Virus record (IMG/VR): IMGVR_UViG_3300009177_000720
Length of the DNA: 64,000 bases
Source of the DNA: a virus
Reading direction: 5' to 3' (one strand)
Position numbers and translations under genes: made by a program. The notes under the pieces are model-generated. The model saw only the letters and a list, made by a program, of their open reading frames with translations. It made no database searches and had not been told where the DNA came from. Below, one piece after another: positions 14,260-60,570 of the stretch. Every line of letters begins with the position of its first letter. Within the stretch, counting starts at the first letter, position 1.

Positions 14260-15207
14260 TCAGTCGAGTTCCTCATCCCAAGGATACTCGTCCTCATCCT
14301 CTTCCTCTTCATCTTCTTCCTCTTCATCGAGATTGTCTTCACAATCCTGACAGACATCATAACCTTCCTCACACTCGCCGCCACACTCGGCGCATTCGTG
14401 GAAGCCGTCATCCTCTTCTTCTTCCTCTTCGCAATCATCTTCGTCATGATGAGAACAACACGGACTGGTAACTCGCAAGGAAAGATCAGAAGAATGCTCT
14501 CTGTCTACCGCGCCAAGCACCTTATACTTACACACGCGCATCTTTGCCTGATCGTAGTCAACCGGAATGGAAACTACGTCAGCCGGATTGACTTCACATT
14601 CCAGCATGATGCCGCCACTATAGAACTGGCTGGCATAGGAGTAATTGGCGACATGCAAGCCATAGCTGCAAGTTTGCGCAGAGTCTTCATTGACTTGGTT
14701 ACGTGGCATTTCAATCACGTTACCTGGCGAGTTATCGAAGGTACCGGAGTGAACGTCCATGTAATCATTGCGAACCTTCTTGTAAGCAATGAAACATCCA
14801 TTTTCGGTAATAGGGTGATCATTCTTCTCCAAGAATTGGAAAAGCTCATTCACTGCTCGGTAAGACGGATTCTTCTGAAGATTTTCTGCAAACTTCACAA
14901 GGGGCTCGCTTGGCAGCCCTTCTGCCTGGAATTTAAGAATCTTCCTGCTGAGAAGGTCCGGCACTGGCATTCCATTGATGTGAACGCGACCGTCCACAAC
15001 TTTGAATTCTCCCTTTCCGAACTTTTCGATCTTCTGCTTTGTAGCAGTAATCATATCGAAAATTTCGTCACGCCTTCCTTCCCTTAATGCTTTGATGACT
15101 TCATCAGCCAAAGCATCCGTACGAGATACGATATGGGTTTGCCCATTTTCGAAATTGAGTGTTACGTTATTATCCGTAATACCATGTGCTCTTAATTTGT
15201 TAGACAT
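14260..15207 (-). CDS. rIIB: rIIB-like protein
   Basis: FIAYKKVR, MPRNQV, CSYGLH, V.P.DVVSIP.DY...KMRVCKY; acidic tail; follows rIIA. Confidence 0.85.
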   Translation of the reverse strand: MSNKLRAHGITDNNVTLNFENGQTHIVSRTDALADEVIKALREGRRDEIFDMITATKQKIEKFGKGEFKVVDGRVHINGMPVPDLLSRKILKFQAEGLPSEPLVKFAENLQKNPSYRAVNELFQFLEKNDHPITENGCFIAYKKVRNDYMDVHSGTFDNSPGNVIEMPRNQVNEDSAQTCSYGLHVANYSYASQFYSGGIMLECEVNPADVVSIPVDYDQAKMRVCKYKVLGAVDREHSSDLSLRVTSPCCSHHDEDDCEEEEEEDDGFHECAECGGECEEGYDVCQDCEDNLDEEEEDEEEEDEDEYPWDEELD

Positions 15208-17305
15208 TTTTCTCTCCTAGCTTTTCATCAATCATGTTAATATAACTGGCCACCGGCTCAACAAGTCCCTGGAAATTGTAAGTGTTCAAATGTTCCAGCA
15301 GCGGATATCGTTTGTGAAACTTCTTGTTAATAGCTTCAATATCATATTCGGGATGATCCTTTGCAAATTTGGCCAGATCAGCATCCGAAATATCTCCATT
15401 GACAGCTTCATAAATATGCAATAAGCCCAAATCCGCTTGGCAAATTTGCCTAACCTTATTGTGTAGAACGAATCTCTGAATGTAGAGACTGTCAGGATCA
15501 GACACACGCGGCTTCACCTGCGGGTACGTGCGCAACATTCGGTCATCTATATCGTGTCGATGAGAAGTCGCAAACTTAATTTCGAGATAATTAATCGTCT
15601 TTGTATGAAGAATATTATCTCGAATAAAGTCTTCAATGTCTTCAAAGTCTGAAAAATCTTCCGCAATTCGATCGGCTGGAGCGCTCGAATCTACTCCATA
15701 GAATGAATAAGCGGGGAACTTTTCCGCCAGATTTCGCAAACTACTCAAATCAAGATACTTCTTGTTCTTGAGGATAGGATGACGAGTGTTCGGATAAGAA
15801 TCCTTTGACAACTGACAAAGAACCTTTTTCGTGGCGTCATCCTCGATAGATGCGTAGCTAACCTGTCGGAAGGCAGTCGCCTGCTTATCAAACTTGAAAA
15901 CAATCAAGCGGGAAGCGGCAGGTGTATAAGCACGTGCAGATGCCTTCGTAATAGAAGACATAAACTGCGGATCCATCTTATCCAAATGAATAGTAGAATT
16001 CAATTTGTCAAGAGGGAACTTGTCGTTCGGACAGACCACATGTAGCGACTTCAGCTTCGGATTATCATCAAAAGCCTTTTTGACATGTCGGGGCGTTGGC
16101 TCTTTGATCGGCAAGTCATTGATGAAAAGGGCCGCATTCTCTTCAAAAGGAAGATGATTATTCAAACGACGGGTTAGCTTGTTAGGATCTAAGCCGTGTT
16201 TACGAGAGTGCTTGCCCTTGCTGAAAGTATACACCGAACAATTGGTGTAGACATAAGAATCTTGCAATTGGATGCCGCGCCAAGACAACTTACCAAGAAA
16301 GTCAATGTTGCTGAAAGCAGTACGCAATTCAGCACGATAATAAATGTTGGCAAGCCAAAGGTTGTCAAACAACTCAATCTTGTCAACTACCCTCTTACGA
16401 ATTTCTTTTTCGATTCCATCCAGACGCTCTCGAATAACCTTCTGAGTGCGCTCATCGAGGTAAACTTGCTCACGACTGGCAGAGAGACTCAGCTCTCCAA
16501 CACCAAAGTACATAACGATGTTACCCTTGGCAGCATCGATGAGTTTACCATCAGCATACTTACGAAGGGCATCAATATCCACAGGATATTCAATGCCGTC
16601 AACAATCATCTTAACTGAACGATTGTAATAATCATTCGAAGAAGTGATGGCCCACTTGTCTCCACTTAGGATGACAGTGGGATTCTTCCAATAGATGTCG
16701 CCACCTTTAATGATCGGCTTGACATCCCAATGACGACAAGCCTGCTCGGTCCAATTGATAAAATCACTAAAGTTCTTGGGAAGAACTGGAATAATAATCT
16801 CGGTCCCATTCTTTTCCTTGGTAGGAGTAGAAGAGGCGAGCATCAACTTACCAACTTTGGTTTCATCAATAAAACAGTTATAGTTATATTGAATACCTTC
16901 ATGAACGGTAATAATACTAAATGAATCGGAATAAGAGAAAGGAGTCTTAGCGCCTAGACCGAACCCACCAGTCTGAACGTTGTCTTCTCTCTTAGTGCTA
17001 GCCGTATATTTGATAAAAATGTTGGACATACGGTCTGGGCTAATGCCTGGTCCGAAATCCTTCACCTTGTAGTAAGGCTCTAGCGTGTTAGGCAAATGAA
17101 TGTGAACCGGAACTTCTGTAGCTCCAACTTCACGATGAGCGTCTCGTGCATTACACGAAATCTCACGACAAATAGCGAGAATGGGATTCGAATACATCTT
17201 GTTGCGCAAGATGTCGAAAATCATTCCCTGATCTTGGATGGAAAAGAACTGTTCCTCCAGCTCTCCCGACATCTCAAGATATGGCTTTGTCTCATTAAGT
17301 TTCAT
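15200..17305 (-). CDS. rIIA: rIIA-like protein (GHKL/HATPase N-terminal domain)
   Basis: MYSNPILAICREISCNARDAH, DFGPGIS, STK, GGFGLGAKTPFSY. Confidence 0.85.
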   Translation of the reverse strand: MKLNETKPYLEMSGELEEQFFSIQDQGMIFDILRNKMYSNPILAICREISCNARDAHREVGATEVPVHIHLPNTLEPYYKVKDFGPGISPDRMSNIFIKYTASTKREDNVQTGGFGLGAKTPFSYSDSFSIITVHEGIQYNYNCFIDETKVGKLMLASSTPTKEKNGTEIIIPVLPKNFSDFINWTEQACRHWDVKPIIKGGDIYWKNPTVILSGDKWAITSSNDYYNRSVKMIVDGIEYPVDIDALRKYADGKLIDAAKGNIVMYFGVGELSLSASREQVYLDERTQKVIRERLDGIEKEIRKRVVDKIELFDNLWLANIYYRAELRTAFSNIDFLGKLSWRGIQLQDSYVYTNCSVYTFSKGKHSRKHGLDPNKLTRRLNNHLPFEENAALFINDLPIKEPTPRHVKKAFDDNPKLKSLHVVCPNDKFPLDKLNSTIHLDKMDPQFMSSITKASARAYTPAASRLIVFKFDKQATAFRQVSYASIEDDATKKVLCQLSKDSYPNTRHPILKNKKYLDLSSLRNLAEKFPAYSFYGVDSSAPADRIAEDFSDFEDIEDFIRDNILHTKTINYLEIKFATSHRHDIDDRMLRTYPQVKPRVSDPDSLYIQRFVLHNKVRQICQADLGLLHIYEAVNGDISDADLAKFAKDHPEYDIEAINKKFHKRYPLLEHLNTYNFQGLVEPVASYINMIDEKLGEKNV

Positions 17306-28599: not shown

Positions 28600-29067
28600 T
28601 CAAGCGCACGGATCAATGTAAAAAATTTCCTTAGCCTTGGACCTGGCGTAGTTTACGCAGTTTCCCGTACCACCTGGTGAACCATCCCACACCGCAATCA
28701 ATTGATCACAGCGGTCTACCATCCACTCATTTCGAGTTTGCATTTTCCAGGCAGCATAACCACCTTCGTTAACAACAACTCTTTCGGTAGCTAGCTTGAT
28801 AAGAGAGCGGTACGTTTTTTGCGAAGCCTGAGGCCAAGCTGACTCTTGCCCCTCAAAGGGGACTGCTGCCACAAAAGGAATACCCAGTTTATGAGCAATG
28901 TTAGCTGCCCATTGATCTACACCTAGGGCCATACCAGAGATTACCTTCTCTGGTTTTAGTTCTCTGAGTGCTTTATCAATCTCTTGACAAACATAGAGAT
29001 AAGTTGGGTTAGGTAGTTTATACCCGCCCAACTTATCCGGTCTATGTCCAGTGAATGCAACAATCAT
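28600..29067 (-). CDS. SLOG family protein (DUF1273/YspA-like)
   Basis: AFTGHRP, ISGMALGVDQWAA, RNEWMVD, GGT.NCV.YA. Confidence 0.88.
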   Translation of the reverse strand: MIVAFTGHRPDKLGGYKLPNPTYLYVCQEIDKALRELKPEKVISGMALGVDQWAANIAHKLGIPFVAAVPFEGQESAWPQASQKTYRSLIKLATERVVVNEGGYAAWKMQTRNEWMVDRCDQLIAVWDGSPGGTGNCVNYARSKAKEIFYIDPCA

Positions 29068-38440: not shown

Positions 38441-39300
38441 ACAAACATTCCACAAGAAGCTTTCACATCAAACCCAACACGCGGAATCATCTGCACCTTA
38501 GTGCTAAATCTAAATCTATCTGTAATTAGATTTAGATTACGATCAATAACTTCTTCTGAACTTTCAACTCCTTGGTCAGGAGATGCCGTATTGTATCGTA
38601 CTAAATTGAATTCACAAATAAGATTGTGTCTTTCAATAGCATCGCAAACATTATTTACCTCTTCGACTGAGTCATTCTCTCCAGCAATGAAAGCATAATG
38701 AATTTTTACTATTTTCTTAGAGAAATCCTGATAATCCCTCAACATTCTTAGGGCCTCATCAGAGTCCATAGCGGCCGGCATCCAATCTTTACGCCACTTT
38801 GAATTAGTAGAATAGATAGAGTAGTAGATTGTTGGGTTGATGTAATTGAAAATGTCTGACAAAGATTTCTTCAAAGATACTGGCATGATAGTAGAGATGT
38901 TGAATTTGGCTGGAAGACCTTCTCCCTTGGCAACTTGTCCCAGCTTTTGCAACAAATCATCGCCCGAATCTAACAAAATCTTGTTAGCTAGCGGTTCACC
39001 TCTTGCCATAAAGTTGTAATGCATGTATTTCGCGGGCTTCGTTTCCTTACGATAGTGCTTAAAGACTTGAATGGCCTGTGCCACAAAGTCATTATGACTA
39101 GAATCAATGAAGGATGTCTGGTCGGTTGCGGTCAAGTGACAGAAAGTACAGCCACGATTGCACCCCGTCTGTGAAGATAAGTAGGCAATAAAGTAATCGT
39201 CACACTTCCTAACGAAGCGTGACTCTAGAAATCCAACTAACTGTTCTTCAACAAAGTTGACCGAATGATCTATTTGAGAATTCAAAACCTTTAAGGACAT
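38437..39300 (-). CDS. RlmN/Cfr-like radical SAM protein (paralog 2)
   Basis: SSQTGCNRGCTFC, FMARGEP, G.NDS, NLVRYN, DVKASCGMF. Confidence 0.82.
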   Translation of the reverse strand: MSLKVLNSQIDHSVNFVEEQLVGFLESRFVRKCDDYFIAYLSSQTGCNRGCTFCHLTATDQTSFIDSSHNDFVAQAIQVFKHYRKETKPAKYMHYNFMARGEPLANKILLDSGDDLLQKLGQVAKGEGLPAKFNISTIMPVSLKKSLSDIFNYINPTIYYSIYSTNSKWRKDWMPAAMDSDEALRMLRDYQDFSKKIVKIHYAFIAGENDSVEEVNNVCDAIERHNLICEFNLVRYNTASPDQGVESSEEVIDRNLNLITDRFRFSTKVQMIPRVGFDVKASCGMFV

Positions 39301-41174
39301 TATTTCACCAAATCAAGGAAGTCTTCTTCAGAGATTAAGGTTGTTCCAAGCTTTCTCGCAGCCTGGGCCTTGGAGCTTGTACTGTTTGGGTCAGCAATGA
39401 CCAAGTAAGTGAGTCCTTTGCCCACTGATCCTTTGACATCCGCTCCTTGATCAGCCGCCATCTTCTCCAAAACAGGACGCTTGGTCTTCATAGACCCGGT
39501 GAAACAAATAGATTTACCAGTAAGTGTACCATGAATCTTGTCTTTAATCTTCACTCCATTCTCAATAAGAGAAAGAATGACCTGTTGATTGTGCTTAAGA
39601 CCATCCGCCAGGAACTTAGCTTTGGTAGGACCGACACCAGGGACCTGTTCAAACTGAGATGCACCCAGTTGCCCGAACCGTTCCAATGTATCACAACCAG
39701 CATTCATGATGGATTTGATGGTGCTTTGACCAATCATAGGGATACTGAGGGCGCCAAGGAAGACTTCCAGCGTGATTTCGTTGTTAGCCCAAAGGATATC
39801 CAGACATTTCTTGGCTGTCTTCTCTCCCAAACGATCCAAATCAGCAATATCATCTACCTTAAGTAGGTAAAGGTCTGCTACGTTCTTAATCTTCTTGGCA
39901 TCCACCAACTTCTCAACCAAGGTATCACCCCATTCGAGTAGGTTCAGTTCCTTGGTCCAGTTCTTAATACGGCCAATGATCTGGGCTCGACAGTGTTCAG
40001 TGTTGGTACAAACCAGATTCTCACCGTCCATCTTGGTGAAACCGCCACACTCAGGGCAATGCTTAGGGGCAGAAGCCACCTTGCCCGTGCCCTTCACAAG
40101 TTCTTCGATTCGAGGAATGACATCGTTGGCTCGGGCGACCAAGACGGATGCGCCAATGTCTAGCTTTAGCTCCTCAATATACGACATGTTGTAGATGCTG
40201 GCTCGTGTAACCGTTGCACCAACCAATTGAACCGGGTCAACTACAGCTACCGGAGTGATTCTTCCACTGTTACCAACCTGCCAAATGATATCTCGAATGA
40301 TTGACTCACGAGCTTCGTTGTCAAACTTGAATGCAATGGCACCTTTAGGTCTTAGATCCTTTTCGCCCAAAGCAATCTGCTTGGCCATATCGTTAAGACG
40401 AATGACTAAGCCGTCAATATCATAGTCTAAACCTTCTCGGTCTTTGTCTTGGTACTCGCGCCAATGCTTGTTGACCTCATCAGCCGTAGCAAAGGTCCAG
40501 AAGTTCGGGGTATTGAACCCGTTGTTCTCAAGCCAATTGAATTGCTTGGCCTCAGTCTTGAAGTCCACATCCCCAAGTACCTGATAGAACAGAATGTCTA
40601 GGTGTTCCACGCCCACACCATCCAGCCTCTTGCAGGTTCCGGAGGCCGCATTACGTGGATTAGCTTTATCAGCAAAGTATTTCTTATGAATACTCTTCTT
40701 CATGATGATTTCACCACGAAGAGATCCGGTAAACTTGTGCTTCAAATGGGAATGAACGCCTCCCATCTTGACCACATTGACCGTAACATCTTCGCCCGTC
40801 TCACCATCACCACGAGTAATGGCTTGGTGGAGGCTACCCTCTTCATAAATCACTTCGATAGAAAGGCCGTCAAGTTTCTCGGTAACGAAAAGCTTCTCAT
40901 CACCGGCCATGTCCTTAGCCCACTTGGTTAGTTCAGCAGGAAGATTGACCTTATCCAAAGACCCCATTGGAATCTGGTGCTTAGCTTTCTTCCATTCGGA
41001 AGGGACAACTGGCGACCCAATTGCCGTTACAGCCTTGCTGGTAGGGTCCAACAGGCGCAATTCGTCAACCCAAGCATCAAAAATCTTATCCGATACTGTC
41101 GGAGTACCGTTGTAATAGTCATTGCGGGCCTGGAAAATCTTGTTTTCGAGTTCTTTGATACGATCTTTCGACAT
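39300..41174 (-). CDS. ligA: NAD-dependent DNA ligase
   Basis: KLDGLS, TRGDG, NPRNAASG, DIDGLV, Zn finger, HhH, BRCT. Confidence 0.96.
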   Translation of the reverse strand: MSKDRIKELENKIFQARNDYYNGTPTVSDKIFDAWVDELRLLDPTSKAVTAIGSPVVPSEWKKAKHQIPMGSLDKVNLPAELTKWAKDMAGDEKLFVTEKLDGLSIEVIYEEGSLHQAITRGDGETGEDVTVNVVKMGGVHSHLKHKFTGSLRGEIIMKKSIHKKYFADKANPRNAASGTCKRLDGVGVEHLDILFYQVLGDVDFKTEAKQFNWLENNGFNTPNFWTFATADEVNKHWREYQDKDREGLDYDIDGLVIRLNDMAKQIALGEKDLRPKGAIAFKFDNEARESIIRDIIWQVGNSGRITPVAVVDPVQLVGATVTRASIYNMSYIEELKLDIGASVLVARANDVIPRIEELVKGTGKVASAPKHCPECGGFTKMDGENLVCTNTEHCRAQIIGRIKNWTKELNLLEWGDTLVEKLVDAKKIKNVADLYLLKVDDIADLDRLGEKTAKKCLDILWANNEITLEVFLGALSIPMIGQSTIKSIMNAGCDTLERFGQLGASQFEQVPGVGPTKAKFLADGLKHNQQVILSLIENGVKIKDKIHGTLTGKSICFTGSMKTKRPVLEKMAADQGADVKGSVGKGLTYLVIADPNSTSSKAQAARKLGTTLISEEDFLDLVK

Positions 41175-41948: not shown

Positions 41949-42260
41949 TTAGTCTTCTTCTGGTTCCTCGGGTTCTTCTCTAAACATTTGTACGGCTTGG
42001 TCGTAAGTCAAGCTCAATTTCTTGAGCAAAAAACGTACCATATCACGATCAGTGACCGATTCTTTTCGACAAAGAATACAAGTAGTAATTTCTTCAAGAA
42101 AATCATCATCAGATGTTTCATCATCTGACTCTTCTTGAATCACTTGTCTACCACCGCATTTATTAGAGCAAAAATGCTCTCCGCATTCACAGCTAAAATA
42201 ACTACCGCAATCTGGAAAATTGTACCCACAATTGGCGCAAGTATAGAAATCAACACCCAT
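41949..42260 (-). CDS. Cys-rich hypothetical protein
   Basis: Multiple CxxC motifs. Confidence 0.6.
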   Translation of the reverse strand: MGVDFYTCANCGYNFPDCGSYFSCECGEHFCSNKCGGRQVIQEESDDETSDDDFLEEITTCILCRKESVTDRDMVRFLLKKLSLTYDQAVQMFREEPEEPEED

Positions 42261-52516: not shown

Positions 52517-53650
52517 TTACTTTAAAATGTGAGGAATAAACCTGCCCAAGTTATTAGTAATTAAAGATTTTGACTCTCGAATGCCTATCCCGGCAGACTC
52601 ACCATCAATAACCCAACTGCCCAACACAGGGTAATTATCGTCAAATTTGGGCAATAAAGCCAAATCTTGGTAAATATACCCCTCTTCACCGTAGGTTCCA
52701 TCAGTACTATCAAGCACCTCAATTTCAGTGTTAATCGTAATGTTGGCGCCCTCCCTAGAATAGAAAGGCTTCTTTACATGCCACGGCAACTTAGAAGGCT
52801 CAAAATGAGCTTCCAAAAGATTAGGGTGCCCAGGATTCAATTCCCATAGAATGGGGAGAATTCCCTTATTGGAAAGGATCATTTTCCAGGCTGGCTCGAT
52901 CCAAAAGGTATTCTCCATAGTCTTAGCAATATGCTGACCGAATTCATCCTTCAGTAGCCACTCCCAGGGGTAGAGTTTGAAAATGTTTTTCATTGAAAAC
53001 AAGTCAACATCGACAAAGAGATTGTCTACACTATCCCAACCAATATGCTCAATGGGCAAGGTCTTTGCTTCAAGCCCGGCCTGAACTGCCGTCTCCTGAA
53101 GGTAGGAAACTGTCATATAGTCTTCATAGGTATCCATATAAGCCAAAAACAAAGAACCAGGATTCAAATAATCTCGTAGCTCTTTCCATTTAGCAATGAG
53201 ACGCTCGTGAATGGAATTGAACTGGTCAGCATCCTTAAAACAGTCCTGCTGCCAATACCACTGGATAACTGCGGCCTCCAAAAGAGAAGTTGGAGTATCT
53301 GCATTGTACTCCAGCATCTTAGGCTGCCCCTCACCGTTATAAGCAAGGTCAAAACGTCCATAGATGGCAGGAGTCTCATTGTTCCAGCTATGTTCAATAA
53401 GGGGAATCGCCACCTCGGGAATACGCAACTCCTTGTAGCGTTTGTGGTCAATGATATGCTGGACTGCCTCTAAACACATCTGATGTAGGGCATTAGTAGC
53501 TGACTCTAGCACTTCAACTTCTCTTGAAGAAAACTCGTAATAAGCCGATTCGTCCCAATAAGGGACGCCATCAGCAGTGTGATAAATCATACCCTGAGAT
53601 TCAACCGTCTTTTCCCAATTAGGACGAACACTTTTCTTAATGCGCTTCAT
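52517..53650 (-). CDS. glutathionylspermidine synthase family ATP-grasp protein (YgiC/YjfC-like)
   Basis: YWDE, GRFDL, LEYNADTPTSLLE, FKLYPWEW, KKP..SREG.N. Confidence 0.93.
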   Translation of the reverse strand: MKRIKKSVRPNWEKTVESQGMIYHTADGVPYWDESAYYEFSSREVEVLESATNALHQMCLEAVQHIIDHKRYKELRIPEVAIPLIEHSWNNETPAIYGRFDLAYNGEGQPKMLEYNADTPTSLLEAAVIQWYWQQDCFKDADQFNSIHERLIAKWKELRDYLNPGSLFLAYMDTYEDYMTVSYLQETAVQAGLEAKTLPIEHIGWDSVDNLFVDVDLFSMKNIFKLYPWEWLLKDEFGQHIAKTMENTFWIEPAWKMILSNKGILPILWELNPGHPNLLEAHFEPSKLPWHVKKPFYSREGANITINTEIEVLDSTDGTYGEEGYIYQDLALLPKFDDNYPVLGSWVIDGESAGIGIRESKSLITNNLGRFIPHILK

Positions 53651-54321: not shown

Positions 54322-55737
54322 TTATTCCTTTGCATCAATGTATTCATCGAGGCGGGCCTGGTTTCTAACCTCGTTGAAGTTAGTTTCGAAACGGATTTCG
54401 CCGTCCTCATATACCGTGCGCATCACCGAGTTTTTGTGGGCAATTTCGCTTTCAGCCAGGGCAACTGTGGTATAACCACGAACCTCATCAAACACAAGGT
54501 CCAAACGCCCGGCCTTGCTTGCTTTCCCAGGATCGGTAACCGGATCCTTAAAGACATCAACCGATTTATCGCCAATGAAGATGTGGCTGCACTTCATAGC
54601 AAATTTCTGAGTGTCACGATTGAGCTGCTGAAGAAGAGCACCACCCATACCAAAAGCGATATTGCTTGCGCTATACCCATTGATAAGCAGGTTGTCCAAA
54701 ATCTCCTTGATAGAGATCTCATTGATACCATCTCCTTGAATAACTCTGACATTATCCAAAACTTTGAATCCCTTCTTGTTGACGGTAGATCCAAACTTCT
54801 CTTCAAGCAACTGAACGCACTTCAGCACGACAGTGGGCGGATGTCCCGAGTCAGGACGGATAATCACCACTGCACCCGAGTCTCTTACCTCTTGGCGCAA
54901 TGCACCTCCCCACAAGTTGGTGCAAGCATTCCACAAGTCATAGGAGTCAGAAACGCAAGCAACCAAGGCCCCCGGCTTGGCAAACTGCCTAAGCATATTG
55001 CGGTAAGCCTCAACCTCATTCTCCTTACCCCACGAGGTAATAGAGCTGTGTTCCGCAGCAGGAATGCTAAATCCGGCCATTGGAATGTTGTAGTATTCAT
55101 TAGCCATCAAAACGCCTGCAACGGTGTCACTTCCCATGAAGTTGACCAAGTGAGAAGCTCCGCCAATCATGGCCGATTCCTGGCTGCTTACACCACGAGA
55201 ACCGAAGTCATGTAGCTTGAAATTGATTTCACCATTTGGATCATCAGCCGATTTACCAAGGGCATCCATAATGATCTGTCTAATGCGGTTACTCCTGGTT
55301 GCTACGGTAATAGGATACCAGACCCTAAGTAGCATGGTTTCAATCCAAGAGACCACCCAAAAGACCTTTGGGTCAGTCGATTCAATGCTAACAAGCACGT
55401 TATGAGTAGGAATGATGCTGCCTTCCTGAGGCGCCCTAATACGCACCGGAATCTTGCCGCCTAACTCTTTGGCAATATACATCCAGCCTTCGTAGTTGAA
55501 GGGCTCGCCATGGGCCGCAAAAAGCTCCTTAGCCTTTTCAACCTCTTCCACCGTTACTCGATGGGTAAGGTACTCCTTCAAGTAGTATTGGAGTCCAAAG
55601 AAAACAGTCCTATCATACTCTCCGCCACGACTCTCGATATACGAGAACATGCTGGTGGTACCCGGTGGATACTGCTTGTAATGGGAAACTTTGTAACTGT
55701 CGGTATCAAACAAATAACTGAAACGATTGGTTTTCAT
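54322..55737 (-). CDS. nadV: nicotinamide phosphoribosyltransferase (NAMPT)
   Basis: TDSYKVSH, LHDFGSRG, PAAEHS, VSDSYD, IRPDSG, IQGDG, FGMGG. Confidence 0.95.
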   Translation of the reverse strand: MKTNRFSYLFDTDSYKVSHYKQYPPGTTSMFSYIESRGGEYDRTVFFGLQYYLKEYLTHRVTVEEVEKAKELFAAHGEPFNYEGWMYIAKELGGKIPVRIRAPQEGSIIPTHNVLVSIESTDPKVFWVVSWIETMLLRVWYPITVATRSNRIRQIIMDALGKSADDPNGEINFKLHDFGSRGVSSQESAMIGGASHLVNFMGSDTVAGVLMANEYYNIPMAGFSIPAAEHSSITSWGKENEVEAYRNMLRQFAKPGALVACVSDSYDLWNACTNLWGGALRQEVRDSGAVVIIRPDSGHPPTVVLKCVQLLEEKFGSTVNKKGFKVLDNVRVIQGDGINEISIKEILDNLLINGYSASNIAFGMGGALLQQLNRDTQKFAMKCSHIFIGDKSVDVFKDPVTDPGKASKAGRLDLVFDEVRGYTTVALAESEIAHKNSVMRTVYEDGEIRFETNFNEVRNQARLDEYIDAKE

Positions 55738-55741
55738 AATT

Positions 55742-55754
55742 ATACTCTCCGTAT
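55742..55754 (-). promoter_or_regulatory. SD-containing hairpin AUAC-GGAGA-GUAU before nadV
   Basis: 4-bp stem, 4 nt before ATG; covaries with the copy at 57065-57077. Confidence 0.55.
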
Positions 55755-55757
55755 TTC

Positions 55758-56054
55758 TTACTTCTTCTCTCCCTGAGAAGATTCAATTCTTTCACACAAA
55801 ATGTCTTTATGTTCGGCCAGCCTAATACGAGCGCTAGCCCCTTTGTAGGGCACTCTCACAAAAGCTTTGGAGACGGGGATATCGCATGGACTACCCATAT
55901 CTGAAATTCTATAAGAAGTATTCTCTACATGAACCTTAGCCCTGGTCTTATTACCATTTGGCCACTGAACACGAATCCATTCACCATCTTTAAATGGCTT
56001 ACCATCCAATTGGTCAATCTCACACCAGTTACTATAAGTAATAACCTTTTTCAT
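55758..56054 (-). CDS. hypothetical protein
   Basis: ORF between the NAD genes; likely start MKKVITY. Confidence 0.6.
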   Translation of the reverse strand: MKKVITYSNWCEIDQLDGKPFKDGEWIRVQWPNGNKTRAKVHVENTSYRISDMGSPCDIPVSKAFVRVPYKGASARIRLAEHKDILCERIESSQGEKK

Positions 56055-56061
56055 AGTACCC

Positions 56062-57060
56062 TCAGAATTTATTGACGAAGTGGGAAATGATATGGAAATG
56101 ATCTTCAAAGAACTCTGACTCCCTAGTAGCCAGGTCACTCAAAGACATCCACCACGCTTTGTCGGCATCATCGGAACCCTTCACAATAGGAAGTGGCCCA
56201 TTACCGAGGTCAATCAGAAATGCATGGGTAATTGTTCTGCCTCTCAAAGAGCGCTCAGGGTAATCAAACACCTTCTGCTCAACGATTGCCTTCTCCAATT
56301 CATCCTTGGAAATCTTAATTCCAGTTTCTTCCTTAAGTTCTCTTAGGGCACCTTCTTGAGTCGTTTCATACTGATTCAAAAATCCGCCAGGAAGAGCAAT
56401 CAATCCTCTGCCAGGGCTACCTTTACGACGGACAGTGAGAACGTGACCACTTCTAATCACGATACAATCCACGGTCACAAAGGTAGGAGGGAAAGGAGCG
56501 CCATCCCAAGAAGCACGATAATTCTTGACGAAATCGTATTCTTCCTTCAAATTTTTGAAAGAGGTGGTCTTCTTAAAATCTTCAAGATATTGAACAATAC
56601 CAGTCGACACATGATTCTTGTAACCATTGTCGTGCGTAAAGTAAAGGCCGCGAATAGCAGTCGCATGCGGCATTCTATCAAGATTTCTCATCTTGAAAAA
56701 CTTCCACTGCGGGAAGTAACTAATTTCTCCGATGTCACAAATCTTGCTATCATCAACGCCATCGGTAGCATCGTAAACAAGCTGTTGAACTTCGGTCAAC
56801 CAACGATTGTTGGTGTACCAGTAATCTCTAACATACAGGAACTTGACGTGCGCCTTTTCCTCATCAGAGAGAGCTGAAAGAATCATCTCTTGACGCTGCT
56901 CGGCAGTCCAAGGATTCTGAACGTTGGGCGCCTTATTCGCGCTGCCAATCACGACCAGAACGGTCTCTGCAAGATTAAGTGCCTCTCTAACAAGCTCATG
57001 GTGTCCATGGTGGAAAGGCTGAAAACGACCAATACAAACGCAATAATCAAATGACTTCAT
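56062..57060 (-). CDS. nadM: bifunctional NMN adenylyltransferase / ADP-ribose pyrophosphatase (NadM-Nudix)
   Basis: IGRFQPFHHGH, NPW...R, HATAIR; Nudix box PGG....E...GALRELKEETG. Confidence 0.94.
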   Translation of the reverse strand: MKSFDYCVCIGRFQPFHHGHHELVREALNLAETVLVVIGSANKAPNVQNPWTAEQRQEMILSALSDEEKAHVKFLYVRDYWYTNNRWLTEVQQLVYDATDGVDDSKICDIGEISYFPQWKFFKMRNLDRMPHATAIRGLYFTHDNGYKNHVSTGIVQYLEDFKKTTSFKNLKEEYDFVKNYRASWDGAPFPPTFVTVDCIVIRSGHVLTVRRKGSPGRGLIALPGGFLNQYETTQEGALRELKEETGIKISKDELEKAIVEQKVFDYPERSLRGRTITHAFLIDLGNGPLPIVKGSDDADKAWWMSLSDLATRESEFFEDHFHIISHFVNKF

Positions 57061-57064
57061 AATA

Positions 57065-57107
57065 ACACTCTCCGTGTATCAACTGTGAAAGAACCCTCTC
57101 TGGGTTC
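57065..57107 (-). promoter_or_regulatory. tandem RGAGA-loop hairpins in the nadM leader
   Basis: GAACCC-AGAGA-GGGUUC then ACAC-GGAGA-GUGU 4 nt before ATG. Confidence 0.55.
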
Positions 57108-57153
57108 ACACTAGAATATAACAATATGCCTACCGGTTTTCTTGTCGCCGCCC

Positions 57154-57188: not shown

Positions 57189-57225
57189 AAATAAAAAAGG
57201 CAGTACACTCGAAAGCATACTGCCT
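57189..57225 (-). terminator. intrinsic terminator
   Basis: AGGCAGTA/TACTGCCT hairpin plus TTTTTATTT on the minus strand. Confidence 0.8.
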
Positions 57226-59607: not shown

Positions 59608-60570
59608 TCATGTCATCAAACCTATAACAGTCTGAGCCAATCTATCAAATATATTTCGATCTATTGGTAGAACTTGATCTACTTTCGTTTGTAGCGTATT
59701 ATTTAGTTCTTCAATCAGGCGACTCTTGGAAATTCCGTAATAAGGAAGTGTTGGGCCGGTGACGTTTTTTAATTTATCATGATGATGAATGGTGAGGCTT
59801 GGTGTCCCAGCTAACTCAGCTAGAATAGCGCCATGAAATCTTTGGGTAATGACTGCTTGATATTGAGATATTAACTTAGCAGCAGAGTCTAAAGTAGTAT
59901 GTCTTTTCAAAAGATATTTGCAACTGCGATGTTTCATCCTGTTGATGATTTCAACAGCGGCCCAGCAATCATTTAATTCGTCATTGACGCACATGGGTAG
60001 GAAATTTATTTTATACCCATCTTCATATAATTGATCTAATAATTGAGAAAACTCTGTCTTGAAGTAATCCCATGAAACATGTTTCCAATGTGGATCATTC
60101 CATTTCGGAACAACCGAGATATTGGGAAGAACCAAAACGGATTTATCAATCTTAGGCAAAGTATTAGTTACAGAAAGTAACTGGACTAAATCAGGAATAA
60201 CAATACAGTTTGAGTTAATCTCTTTAACTTTATCTAAATTAACTGTAGTCCTAATCGCCACAAGCTGTGCCACGGCCATTATCTCTTTATGAGATTCATG
60301 AATGGCAGTCTCGGCTCCAACACCAATATAGAATACTTTATTCTTTTTAACGGCTTCAATAGTCTTTTTGTCTGCTATCTTAAGCGACTCTCCAAGGAAA
60401 GAGCCTCCGCCTAGAAAAATAGCATCAGCACCTTCCACCTGGGAAAGTGTTATTTTATCTGTGAAAGTAAAACTAAATGTCGGGAACAACTGCTGAAATG
60501 CATCTCGAAACAAATCGTCTCCCAAGTTGCCTTTGTTATACCATCCGTATACAAGGACTTTAGAGGACAT
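59608..60570 (-). CDS. polysaccharide pyruvyl transferase family protein
   Basis: GWYNKGNLGDDL, GGGSFL, PDLV, RFHGAILA. Confidence 0.85.
   Translation of the reverse strand: MSSKVLVYGWYNKGNLGDDLFRDAFQQLFPTFSFTFTDKITLSQVEGADAIFLGGGSFLGESLKIADKKTIEAVKKNKVFYIGVGAETAIHESHKEIMAVAQLVAIRTTVNLDKVKEINSNCIVIPDLVQLLSVTNTLPKIDKSVLVLPNISVVPKWNDPHWKHVSWDYFKTEFSQLLDQLYEDGYKINFLPMCVNDELNDCWAAVEIINRMKHRSCKYLLKRHTTLDSAAKLISQYQAVITQRFHGAILAELAGTPSLTIHHHDKLKNVTGPTLPYYGISKSRLIEELNNTLQTKVDQVLPIDRNIFDRLAQTVIGLMT

Follow-up and report, generated by a model that had tools for sequence, protein, structure and literature searches.

Which signal sits over the ribosome-binding sites of two viral genes for nicotinamide adenine dinucleotide (NAD) salvage, and what might read it? 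The question is raised by a stretch of 64,000 nucleotides from a virus (IMG/VR record IMGVR_UViG_3300009177_000720; the whole stretch is called the window below), in which a preliminary description made from the letters alone had placed short hairpins with RGAGA loops before nadV and nadM. The three hairpins lie where they had been placed, on the minus strand at 55754–55742 (nadV), 57077–57065 (nadM) and 57107–57091 (the nadM leader), but their arrangement is different. What had been described as a single hairpin at the ribosome-binding site is a tandem of two: nadM and nadV are each preceded by one unit of hairpin 1 (H1), a linker, hairpin 2 (H2), four nucleotides and the AUG, with a total length of ca. 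55 nt. The supposed third copy in the nadM leader is not a spare – it is the H1 of that gene's unit, and the H1 of nadV had been missed. This leader is a real cis-regulatory RNA of phage NAD-salvage genes, new to public databases.

A tandem hairpin leader and its covariation

The two hairpins of the unit differ in character (Table 1). In the window, H1 has a stable stem of 6–7 bp of free sequence closed by a C-RGNGA-G loop. H2 has a stem of only 4 bp, in which a core of AC-GGAGA-GU is extended by two covarying pairs. The linkers between them are 8–13 nt long and A/U-rich. Four nucleotides separate H2 from the start codon in both cases, tatt before the ATG of nadM at 57060 and aatt before that of nadV at 55737. 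The H1 of nadV is placed within the last codons of the upstream open reading frame (ORF), which encodes 98 amino acids.

The minus strand of the window contains 209 RGAGA words. Six of them stand between arms that form at least four Watson-Crick pairs, where about one is expected, and three of the six are those of the nadM/nadV locus. About 12 window genes have a GGAGA Shine-Dalgarno sequence, and only nadM and nadV among them have the flanking stem. The two H2 copies are a single compensatory pair apart (U-A to C-G), not two as had been proposed. Taken alone, this one pair is weak evidence; the strong covariation comes from relatives.

Relatives were fetched through their NadV proteins, and the sequence upstream of the nadV starts was inspected unfiltered. 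Two hairpins are visible in ca. 15 of the 22 closest nadV loci, with quite different H1 stem sequences. A strict scan found 29 tandem pairs in 760 kb, all on the gene strand and all at nadM and nadV starts. An alignment of 28 leaders has 89% of its cells paired, and double-sided changes are seen in 10 of its 12 pairs. The covariation score of this alignment is 0.60, against 0.17 in shuffled alignments (none of 500 as high) and at most 0.19 with slid partners, and RNAalifold independently recovers both helices.

Because the 28 leaders had been selected for stems, a non-circular control was made with pattern scans of IMG/VR and of genomes that demanded just 2 bp per hairpin. An H1 stem of at least 5 bp was present in 36 of the 52 gene-associated matches (those with a long ORF downstream) and in 14 of the 130 chance matches. 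For an H2 stem of at least 4 bp, the counts were 45 of 52 and 25 of 130.

The conserved core that emerges is small. In each hairpin it consists of a 5-nt loop and one closing pair, with no internal loop, junction or pseudoknot, and the bases conserved in both loops are G2, G4 and A5 together with the closing C-G pair. The distance to the AUG, which had been described as kept at 4 nt, ranges from 0 to 4 nt among relatives, the linker from 6 to 18 nt, and the GC content of the leader from 31 to 61% across phages. Asymmetric conserved loops, freely covarying stems and the confinement of all copies to the sense strand bear out the original suggestion of selection on RNA rather than on a DNA operator.

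Gene specificity, distribution and sister classes

A covariance model of the leader (R1), run with filters off on both strands of the window, matched two sites only, with 54.8 and 53.9 bits (E ~1e-13); both sites are in the seed alignment of the model, so these matches are expected by construction, and the independent members come from the pattern scan. The next best match had 9.5 bits. No motif was found by R1 at the ORF between nadM and nadV or at any other window gene, in agreement with the specificity first suspected for the two salvage genes.

Large phage genomes show the same restriction. A 480 kb genome (G006, 100% complete) and a 309 kb genome (G007, 91% complete) each have two motif copies, one at nadM and one at nadV. 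A 204 kb genome (G008, containing locus L002; 47% complete) has three copies above threshold. The extra copies at L002:1600–1660 and L002:2052–2101, which are the same in locus L018, have the H2 sequence CTCC-GGTGA-GGAG and precede a 108-aa ORF and a 254-aa cysteine-rich ORF, neither with a Pfam match, just upstream of nadM. The leader of nadM itself is degenerate in L002, with an H1 loop of AUUGA and no H2.

When all IMG/VR contigs were scanned with a pattern for the loops only, 64 matches were obtained. Of these, fifty lie directly before homologues of nadV or nadM, some of which are just 40–47% identical to the window proteins, and the remaining 14 are without hairpins. The leader is a recurrent feature of these two genes, found in dozens of uncultivated phages.

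Among the first 120 pattern matches listed for prokaryotic genomes, one was a true case and nearly all others were chance matches. The true case is on a contig of an acidobacterial Terracidiphilus metagenome-assembled genome (L264:12291–14700; G009:C20) with bacterial-looking neighbours. Its class-A leader (the type described so far) stands before nadM-Nudix only, a PncB-type NAPRTase gene follows, and NadV is absent. A phage-type integrase is encoded 2 kb away, and the locus may be on an island.

No sense-strand match was found in Rfam 15 for a 6 kb region and two 91-nt segments at E values up to 10; the only matches were weak antisense noise (CRISPR-DR30 and snoU49). Literature searches found no published description of the two-hairpin leader.

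More distant loci (L024–L080, e.g. L027:2875–2924 and L027:3935–3982) have a sister leader, class B, before both genes. Its H1 loop is G-AUAGA-C: compared to class A, the closing pair is flipped and G2 is replaced by U. In the class-B H2, a stem of 5–6 bp, free in sequence, encloses GGAGY, GGAAC or GGAUU, and the hairpin either abuts the AUG or takes in its first base. There are 46 unique class-B leaders. A –10 box resembling TGnTATACT is often found 7–8 nt before the class-B H1. In a third NadM clade an H1 loop of approximately GGUAG is apparent by eye, in leaders that the script scored as having none. The leader class is nearly always common to both genes of one genome (A/A in 15, B/B in 21), and class A maps onto a single NadM clade with a support of 96.

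A predicted translational operator and its possible readers

What is observed is a covarying motif that is specific to the NAD-salvage genes and occurs together with NadM. The favoured reading of these observations is that the leader is a translational operator read by a protein, with the bifunctional NadM-Nudix enzyme as the favoured reader (probability of about 0.5); translational repression, the reader and its effector are the inferred parts. The Shine-Dalgarno sequence is always in the H2 loop, the stem touches the AUG, and the nadV copy lies within a polycistronic message, which together point to control of translation initiation. A promoter, a transcription-control element or a function at the 5' end does not fit a nadV copy that lies inside the transcript and extends over the end of an ORF, and a role as a 5' cap or 5'-end stabiliser is ruled out on the same grounds. 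H2 is weak alone (–1.7 to –3.1 kcal/mol) and yet its pairing is conserved, implying a partner that stabilises it. The H1 and H2 loops share G2, G4, A5 and the closing C-G pair, suggesting one reader with two equivalent sites. Across lineages, loop sequence and closing-pair orientation switch jointly in both leaders, as would be expected of a macromolecule that co-evolves with its RNA and less so of a metabolite common to all.

In the proposed mechanism, a marginally stable H2 would display the Shine-Dalgarno sequence GGAG in its loop just before the AUG. One trans-acting reader would recognise G2, G4, A5 and the closing C-G pair and would bind H1 and H2, probably as a dimer. Once bound, it would clamp H2 shut and exclude the 30S subunit from the Shine-Dalgarno sequence and the AUG, and synthesis of the two pathway enzymes would fall in parallel. 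Binding by NadM-Nudix would amount to autogenous feedback, presumably relieved or strengthened by NAD+, nicotinamide mononucleotide (NMN) or ADP-ribose in its active sites, and such feedback would limit a pathway that drains phosphoribosyl pyrophosphate (PRPP) and ATP.

There are precedents for autogenous translational operators of this kind, among them the E. coli thrS operator, bound by dimeric threonyl-tRNA synthetase (ThrRS), and the operator of phage T4 gene 43. As in these systems, the leader is structured at or over the Shine-Dalgarno sequence and AUG, and occupancy would compete with the 30S subunit. As with thrS, two hairpin domains could suit a dimeric enzyme of the same pathway. There is no homology to either in sequence or structure, and the present case differs in having two separate target genes, a Shine-Dalgarno sequence inside a loop, and a reader that is a candidate.

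NadM-Nudix is the most probable reader and the leading candidate on comparative grounds, because it is the constant companion of the motif. Locus L016, a 446 kb genome that is 100% complete, has a NadV nested within the class-A NadV clade (99* branch), and has neither NadM-Nudix nor any copy of the motif, though NadV is present. The acidobacterial operon has NadM and the motif without NadV. In L011, a very divergent NadM (branch length 1.03) occurs together with a degenerate motif. The idea of a link to the Nudix-NMN adenylyltransferase (NMNAT) protein, raised in the preliminary description, thus gains support from co-occurrence, from the L016 loss and from the acidobacterial operon, while the protein's part as reader stays that of a candidate.

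Several other candidates were tried. NadV as an autogenous reader is disfavoured, since L016 retains NadV without the motif and, in L014 and L022, nadM alone has kept the motif. The neighbouring 98-aa and 88-aa ORFs do not accompany the motif in relatives, and were rejected. Within five motif-bearing phage records, a gene for a phage-encoded CsrA is absent, and the search for a phage PyrR-type phosphoribosyltransferase (PRTase) gave one sub-threshold match and none above the family cut-off.

The NMNAT fold (in NadR) and the Nudix fold (in NrtR) already act as sensors, which makes NAD+, NMN or ADP-ribose the likely effectors. NrtR and NadR are DNA-binding transcription factors with palindromic operators that regulate bacterial nadV, nadM and other NAD genes. 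The same genes would be controlled here, with the same folds (Nudix-like in NrtR, NMNAT in NadR) sensing an NAD ligand, but through a pair of sense-strand RNA hairpins at the ribosome-binding site.

A number of points weigh against an operator read by NadM-Nudix. The NadM of the window is a canonical NadM-Nudix without an extra RNA-binding domain. The loss of NadM in L016 is a single evolutionary event, and sensing of a metabolite of the complete pathway would predict the same outcome. The class-A motif is missing from many loci that encode NadM; these have class-B or other leaders, and some nadM genes have none. That leader class coincides with NadM clade could reflect vertical inheritance alone. 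The two extra copies in L002 and L018 stand before ORFs of no assigned function with H2 20–30 nt from the AUG, where a separate Shine-Dalgarno sequence is used and H2 does not hold the working one. Operator function, binding of a reader and regulation are predictions from sequence.

The alternative that survives best, unlikely as it seems, is a new small riboswitch of two mini-hairpins. Its ligand would be one of the pathway's metabolites (NAD+, NMN, ADP-ribose, nicotinamide or PRPP), bound by the two purine-rich loops or between them, and would stabilise H2, hiding or exposing the Shine-Dalgarno sequence. The tight tie to NAD genes, across phages with leaders of 31–61% GC and one bacterium, is in keeping with this, as are the lack of an RNA-binding domain in NadM and the five motif-bearing phage records without CsrA or a PyrR-type PRTase above the family cut-off. 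A conserved core that is confined in each hairpin to the pentaloop and its closing pair, free of junctions, internal loops and pseudoknots, would be slight for a riboswitch. Both loops are purine-only, making Watson-Crick kissing impossible; the concerted change of loop and closing-pair orientation between classes A and B is unusual for a ligand pocket; and the motif is missing where NadM is missing, though NadV stays.

Guanidine-II (mini-ykkC) has two hairpins with self-complementary ACGR loops that allow kissing. It shares with the present leader two short hairpins with a conserved loop of 4–5 nt, a conserved closing C-G pair and free stems, an unconserved linker, and a ribosome-binding site at the second hairpin; the RGNGA pentaloops, the gene context and the absence of an Rfam match set the present leader apart. 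NAD riboswitches are strikingly rare, and NAD+-I (the nadA motif) is found before nadA in Acidobacteria, with two stem-bulge-stem domains and ACANCCCC in each internal bulge (PMC6859854). The likeness to NAD+-I counts in favour of a riboswitch: tandem similar domains upstream of an NAD-synthesis gene, a ribosome-binding site in the second domain, and translational control. The leader described here differs in its uninterrupted stems, its conserved bases in terminal loops, its lack of an Rfam match and its position upstream of nadM and nadV in phages; the one acidobacterial case precedes nadM. NAD+-II (the pnuC motif) lies upstream of pnuC and has P1, P1a and a pseudoknot involving the region of the ribosome-binding site (PMC7749635), whereas the leader has no Rfam match to it, no complement capable of a pseudoknot and another gene context. 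A fuller version, in which the leader would be a third, structurally minimal class of NAD-pathway riboswitch, with two pentaloops jointly binding a metabolite, metering the counter-defence and forming sub-classes through their loop variants, is more doubtful still.

Also doubtful, and to a similar degree, is a host factor (PyrR, CsrA or ribosomal protein S1), or a passive role as a Shine-Dalgarno-presenting enhancer or mRNA-stability element. The case for PyrR comes from the binding loop of Bacillus pyr leaders, with consensus ARUCCAGAGAGGYU (PMC7430163; Rfam RF00515). Its centre is identical to the top of H1, CC-AGAGA-GG, and PyrR combines the activity of a metabolic enzyme with nucleotide-responsive binding of RNA. 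Many H1 copies contain the core CCAGAGAGG, but the flanks mismatch, loop position 3 varies (A, U or G) and some stems are CUC/GAG or ACC/GGU. The ARU/YU flanks, the purine-rich internal bulge and the terminator/antiterminator of the pyr leaders are missing, RF00515 is unmatched even with 91-nt queries at E values up to 10, and H1 stands here in tandem with a Shine-Dalgarno hairpin before NAD genes rather than pyr genes.

CsrA and RsmA sites have GGA in the loop of each high-affinity hairpin. H2 resembles such a site, with GGA in a loop over the Shine-Dalgarno sequence and a second site upstream at a typical distance, and a CsrA-like reader had been suggested from the start. It is unlikely: the H1 loop is AGAGA or AGUGA, with no GGA, in 23 of the listed class-A leaders, GGA is missing from most H1 loops, only two genes have the element, and the five motif-bearing records are without CsrA. 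A passive role could draw on a mild enrichment of loose hairpins with the Shine-Dalgarno sequence in the loop, present at 12 of 85 window genes against 6.5 ± 2.4 in shuffles. The enrichment was only mild, and a phage-wide style of ribosome-binding site was rejected as an explanation. The conserved H1 loop, which is not a Shine-Dalgarno sequence, also speaks against a passive role. Furthermore, a general enhancer or global regulator should mark more genes, and poorly fits a motif on 2 of ca. 85 window genes and at two sites in a 480 kb genome; that phages of very different GC content have the motif in common argues against the factor of one host.

Chance – an ordinary Shine-Dalgarno sequence flanked by short inverted repeats – is extremely improbable: the window alone offers just two 4-bp stems and one compensatory pair, but covarying conservation in ca. 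50 independent phage leaders refutes it, through the covariation, model and pattern-scan results.

The pathway itself gives a rationale for the tight control that an operator read by NadM-Nudix would provide. NadV and NadM make up the NARP2 pathway, by which phages rebuild NAD+ to escape NAD-depleting defence, and NARP2 overproduces NAD+, consumes PRPP and is toxic to clone (bioRxiv 10.1101/2024.02.11.579819). The same paper mentions no leader, hairpin or riboswitch. That both genes have a dedicated RNA control element of deep conservation indicates, as far as sequence comparison can tell, that phages regulate this NAD counter-defence post-transcriptionally. If the operator reading is true, the metabolic enzyme NadM-Nudix would moonlight as a ligand-responsive translational repressor; if the riboswitch reading is true, the leader would be a new minimal riboswitch for an NAD-related metabolite. 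With a size of ca. 55 nt, the element is directly testable.

Locus layout and other hairpins in the window

The minus-strand gene order is a 325-aa gene, nadM, the 98-aa ORF, nadV and an 88-aa cysteine-rich ORF. The strong terminator-like hairpin at 57225–57198 suggests that nadM is the first gene of its own transcription unit. The nadM product has a cytidylyltransferase-like NMNAT domain and a Nudix domain, and aligns end to end with the Synechocystis NadM-Nudix 2QJO (E 1.7e-95) without an extra domain. The 98-aa ORF between nadM and nadV has a counterpart in one related locus only (L005).

Table 1. Positions of the leader hairpins, genes and associated signals at the nadM/nadV locus of the window
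Feature	Position	Strand	Remarks
Terminator-like hairpin, 12 bp stem and T-run	57198..57225	-	Intrinsic type; closes the upstream 325-aa gene
Promoter-like box TAGGCATATTGTTATATT (TGn + TATATT, extended -10 type)	57115..57132	-	Ends 7 nt before nadM H1; putative
nadM H1 GAACCC-AGAGA-GGGTTC	57091..57107	-	Loop 57101-57097; closing C-G; predicted -9.1 kcal/mol
nadM linker, 13 nt, A/U-rich	57078..57090	-	Sequence not conserved
nadM H2 ACAC-GGAGA-GTGT	57065..57077	-	Loop 57073-57069 contains the Shine-Dalgarno sequence GGAG; predicted -3.1 kcal/mol
nadM, 332 aa	56062..57060	-	Bifunctional NMN adenylyltransferase and Nudix ADP-ribose pyrophosphatase
98-aa ORF	55758..56054	-	No family match; own GAGG Shine-Dalgarno sequence; without the motif
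nadV H1 TCTTCTC-AGGGA-GAGAAGA	55763..55781	-	Loop 55774-55770; closing C-G
nadV linker, 8 nt	55755..55762	-	Contains the TAA stop of the 98-aa ORF
nadV H2 ATAC-GGAGA-GTAT	55742..55754	-	Loop 55750-55746 contains the Shine-Dalgarno sequence GGAG; predicted -1.7 kcal/mol
nadV, 471 aa	54322..55737	-	Nicotinamide phosphoribosyltransferase; NAMPT_N and NAPRTase domains

The promoter-like box before the nadM H1 is kept in the form TAGGCATAACGATATATA in the closest relatives (L001, L004, L005, L006 and L008). Its sequence and position would suit a promoter; a further operator of nadM, acting at the DNA level, is the other possibility. A role of the GGCATA...TATAT box as a phage-wide promoter was rejected: the window has one perfect occurrence and one single-mismatch match, the latter at the level of chance.

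Other genes of the window encode an NAD-dependent DNA ligase (39300–41174), a homologue of rIIA (15200–17305) and a glutathionylspermidine synthase (52517–53650), all on the minus strand, as well as helicases. Together these suggest a large virulent-type phage. The NAD-dependent DNA ligase consumes NAD, which the salvage genes rebuild. No close phage relatives of the window were found by megablast against INPHARED, and the best protein match of its NadV has 58% identity.

Three further hairpins on the minus strand of the window lie outside the nadM/nadV locus. AATGC-GGAGA-GCATT at 42173–42187, inside a 103-aa ORF, and AGTTAA-AGAGA-TTAACT at 60213–60229 are isolated single hairpins away from start codons, with at most 8.4 bits in the R1 model. 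The third, at 28932–28960, is a perfect 8-bp hairpin, ACCAGAGA-AGGTAA-TCTCTGGT, which ends exactly at the ATG of a 110-aa ORF (28932–28600). It has an AGG Shine-Dalgarno sequence in its loop. Unrelated to the NAD motif, this hairpin is a strong candidate for a structure that blocks translation.

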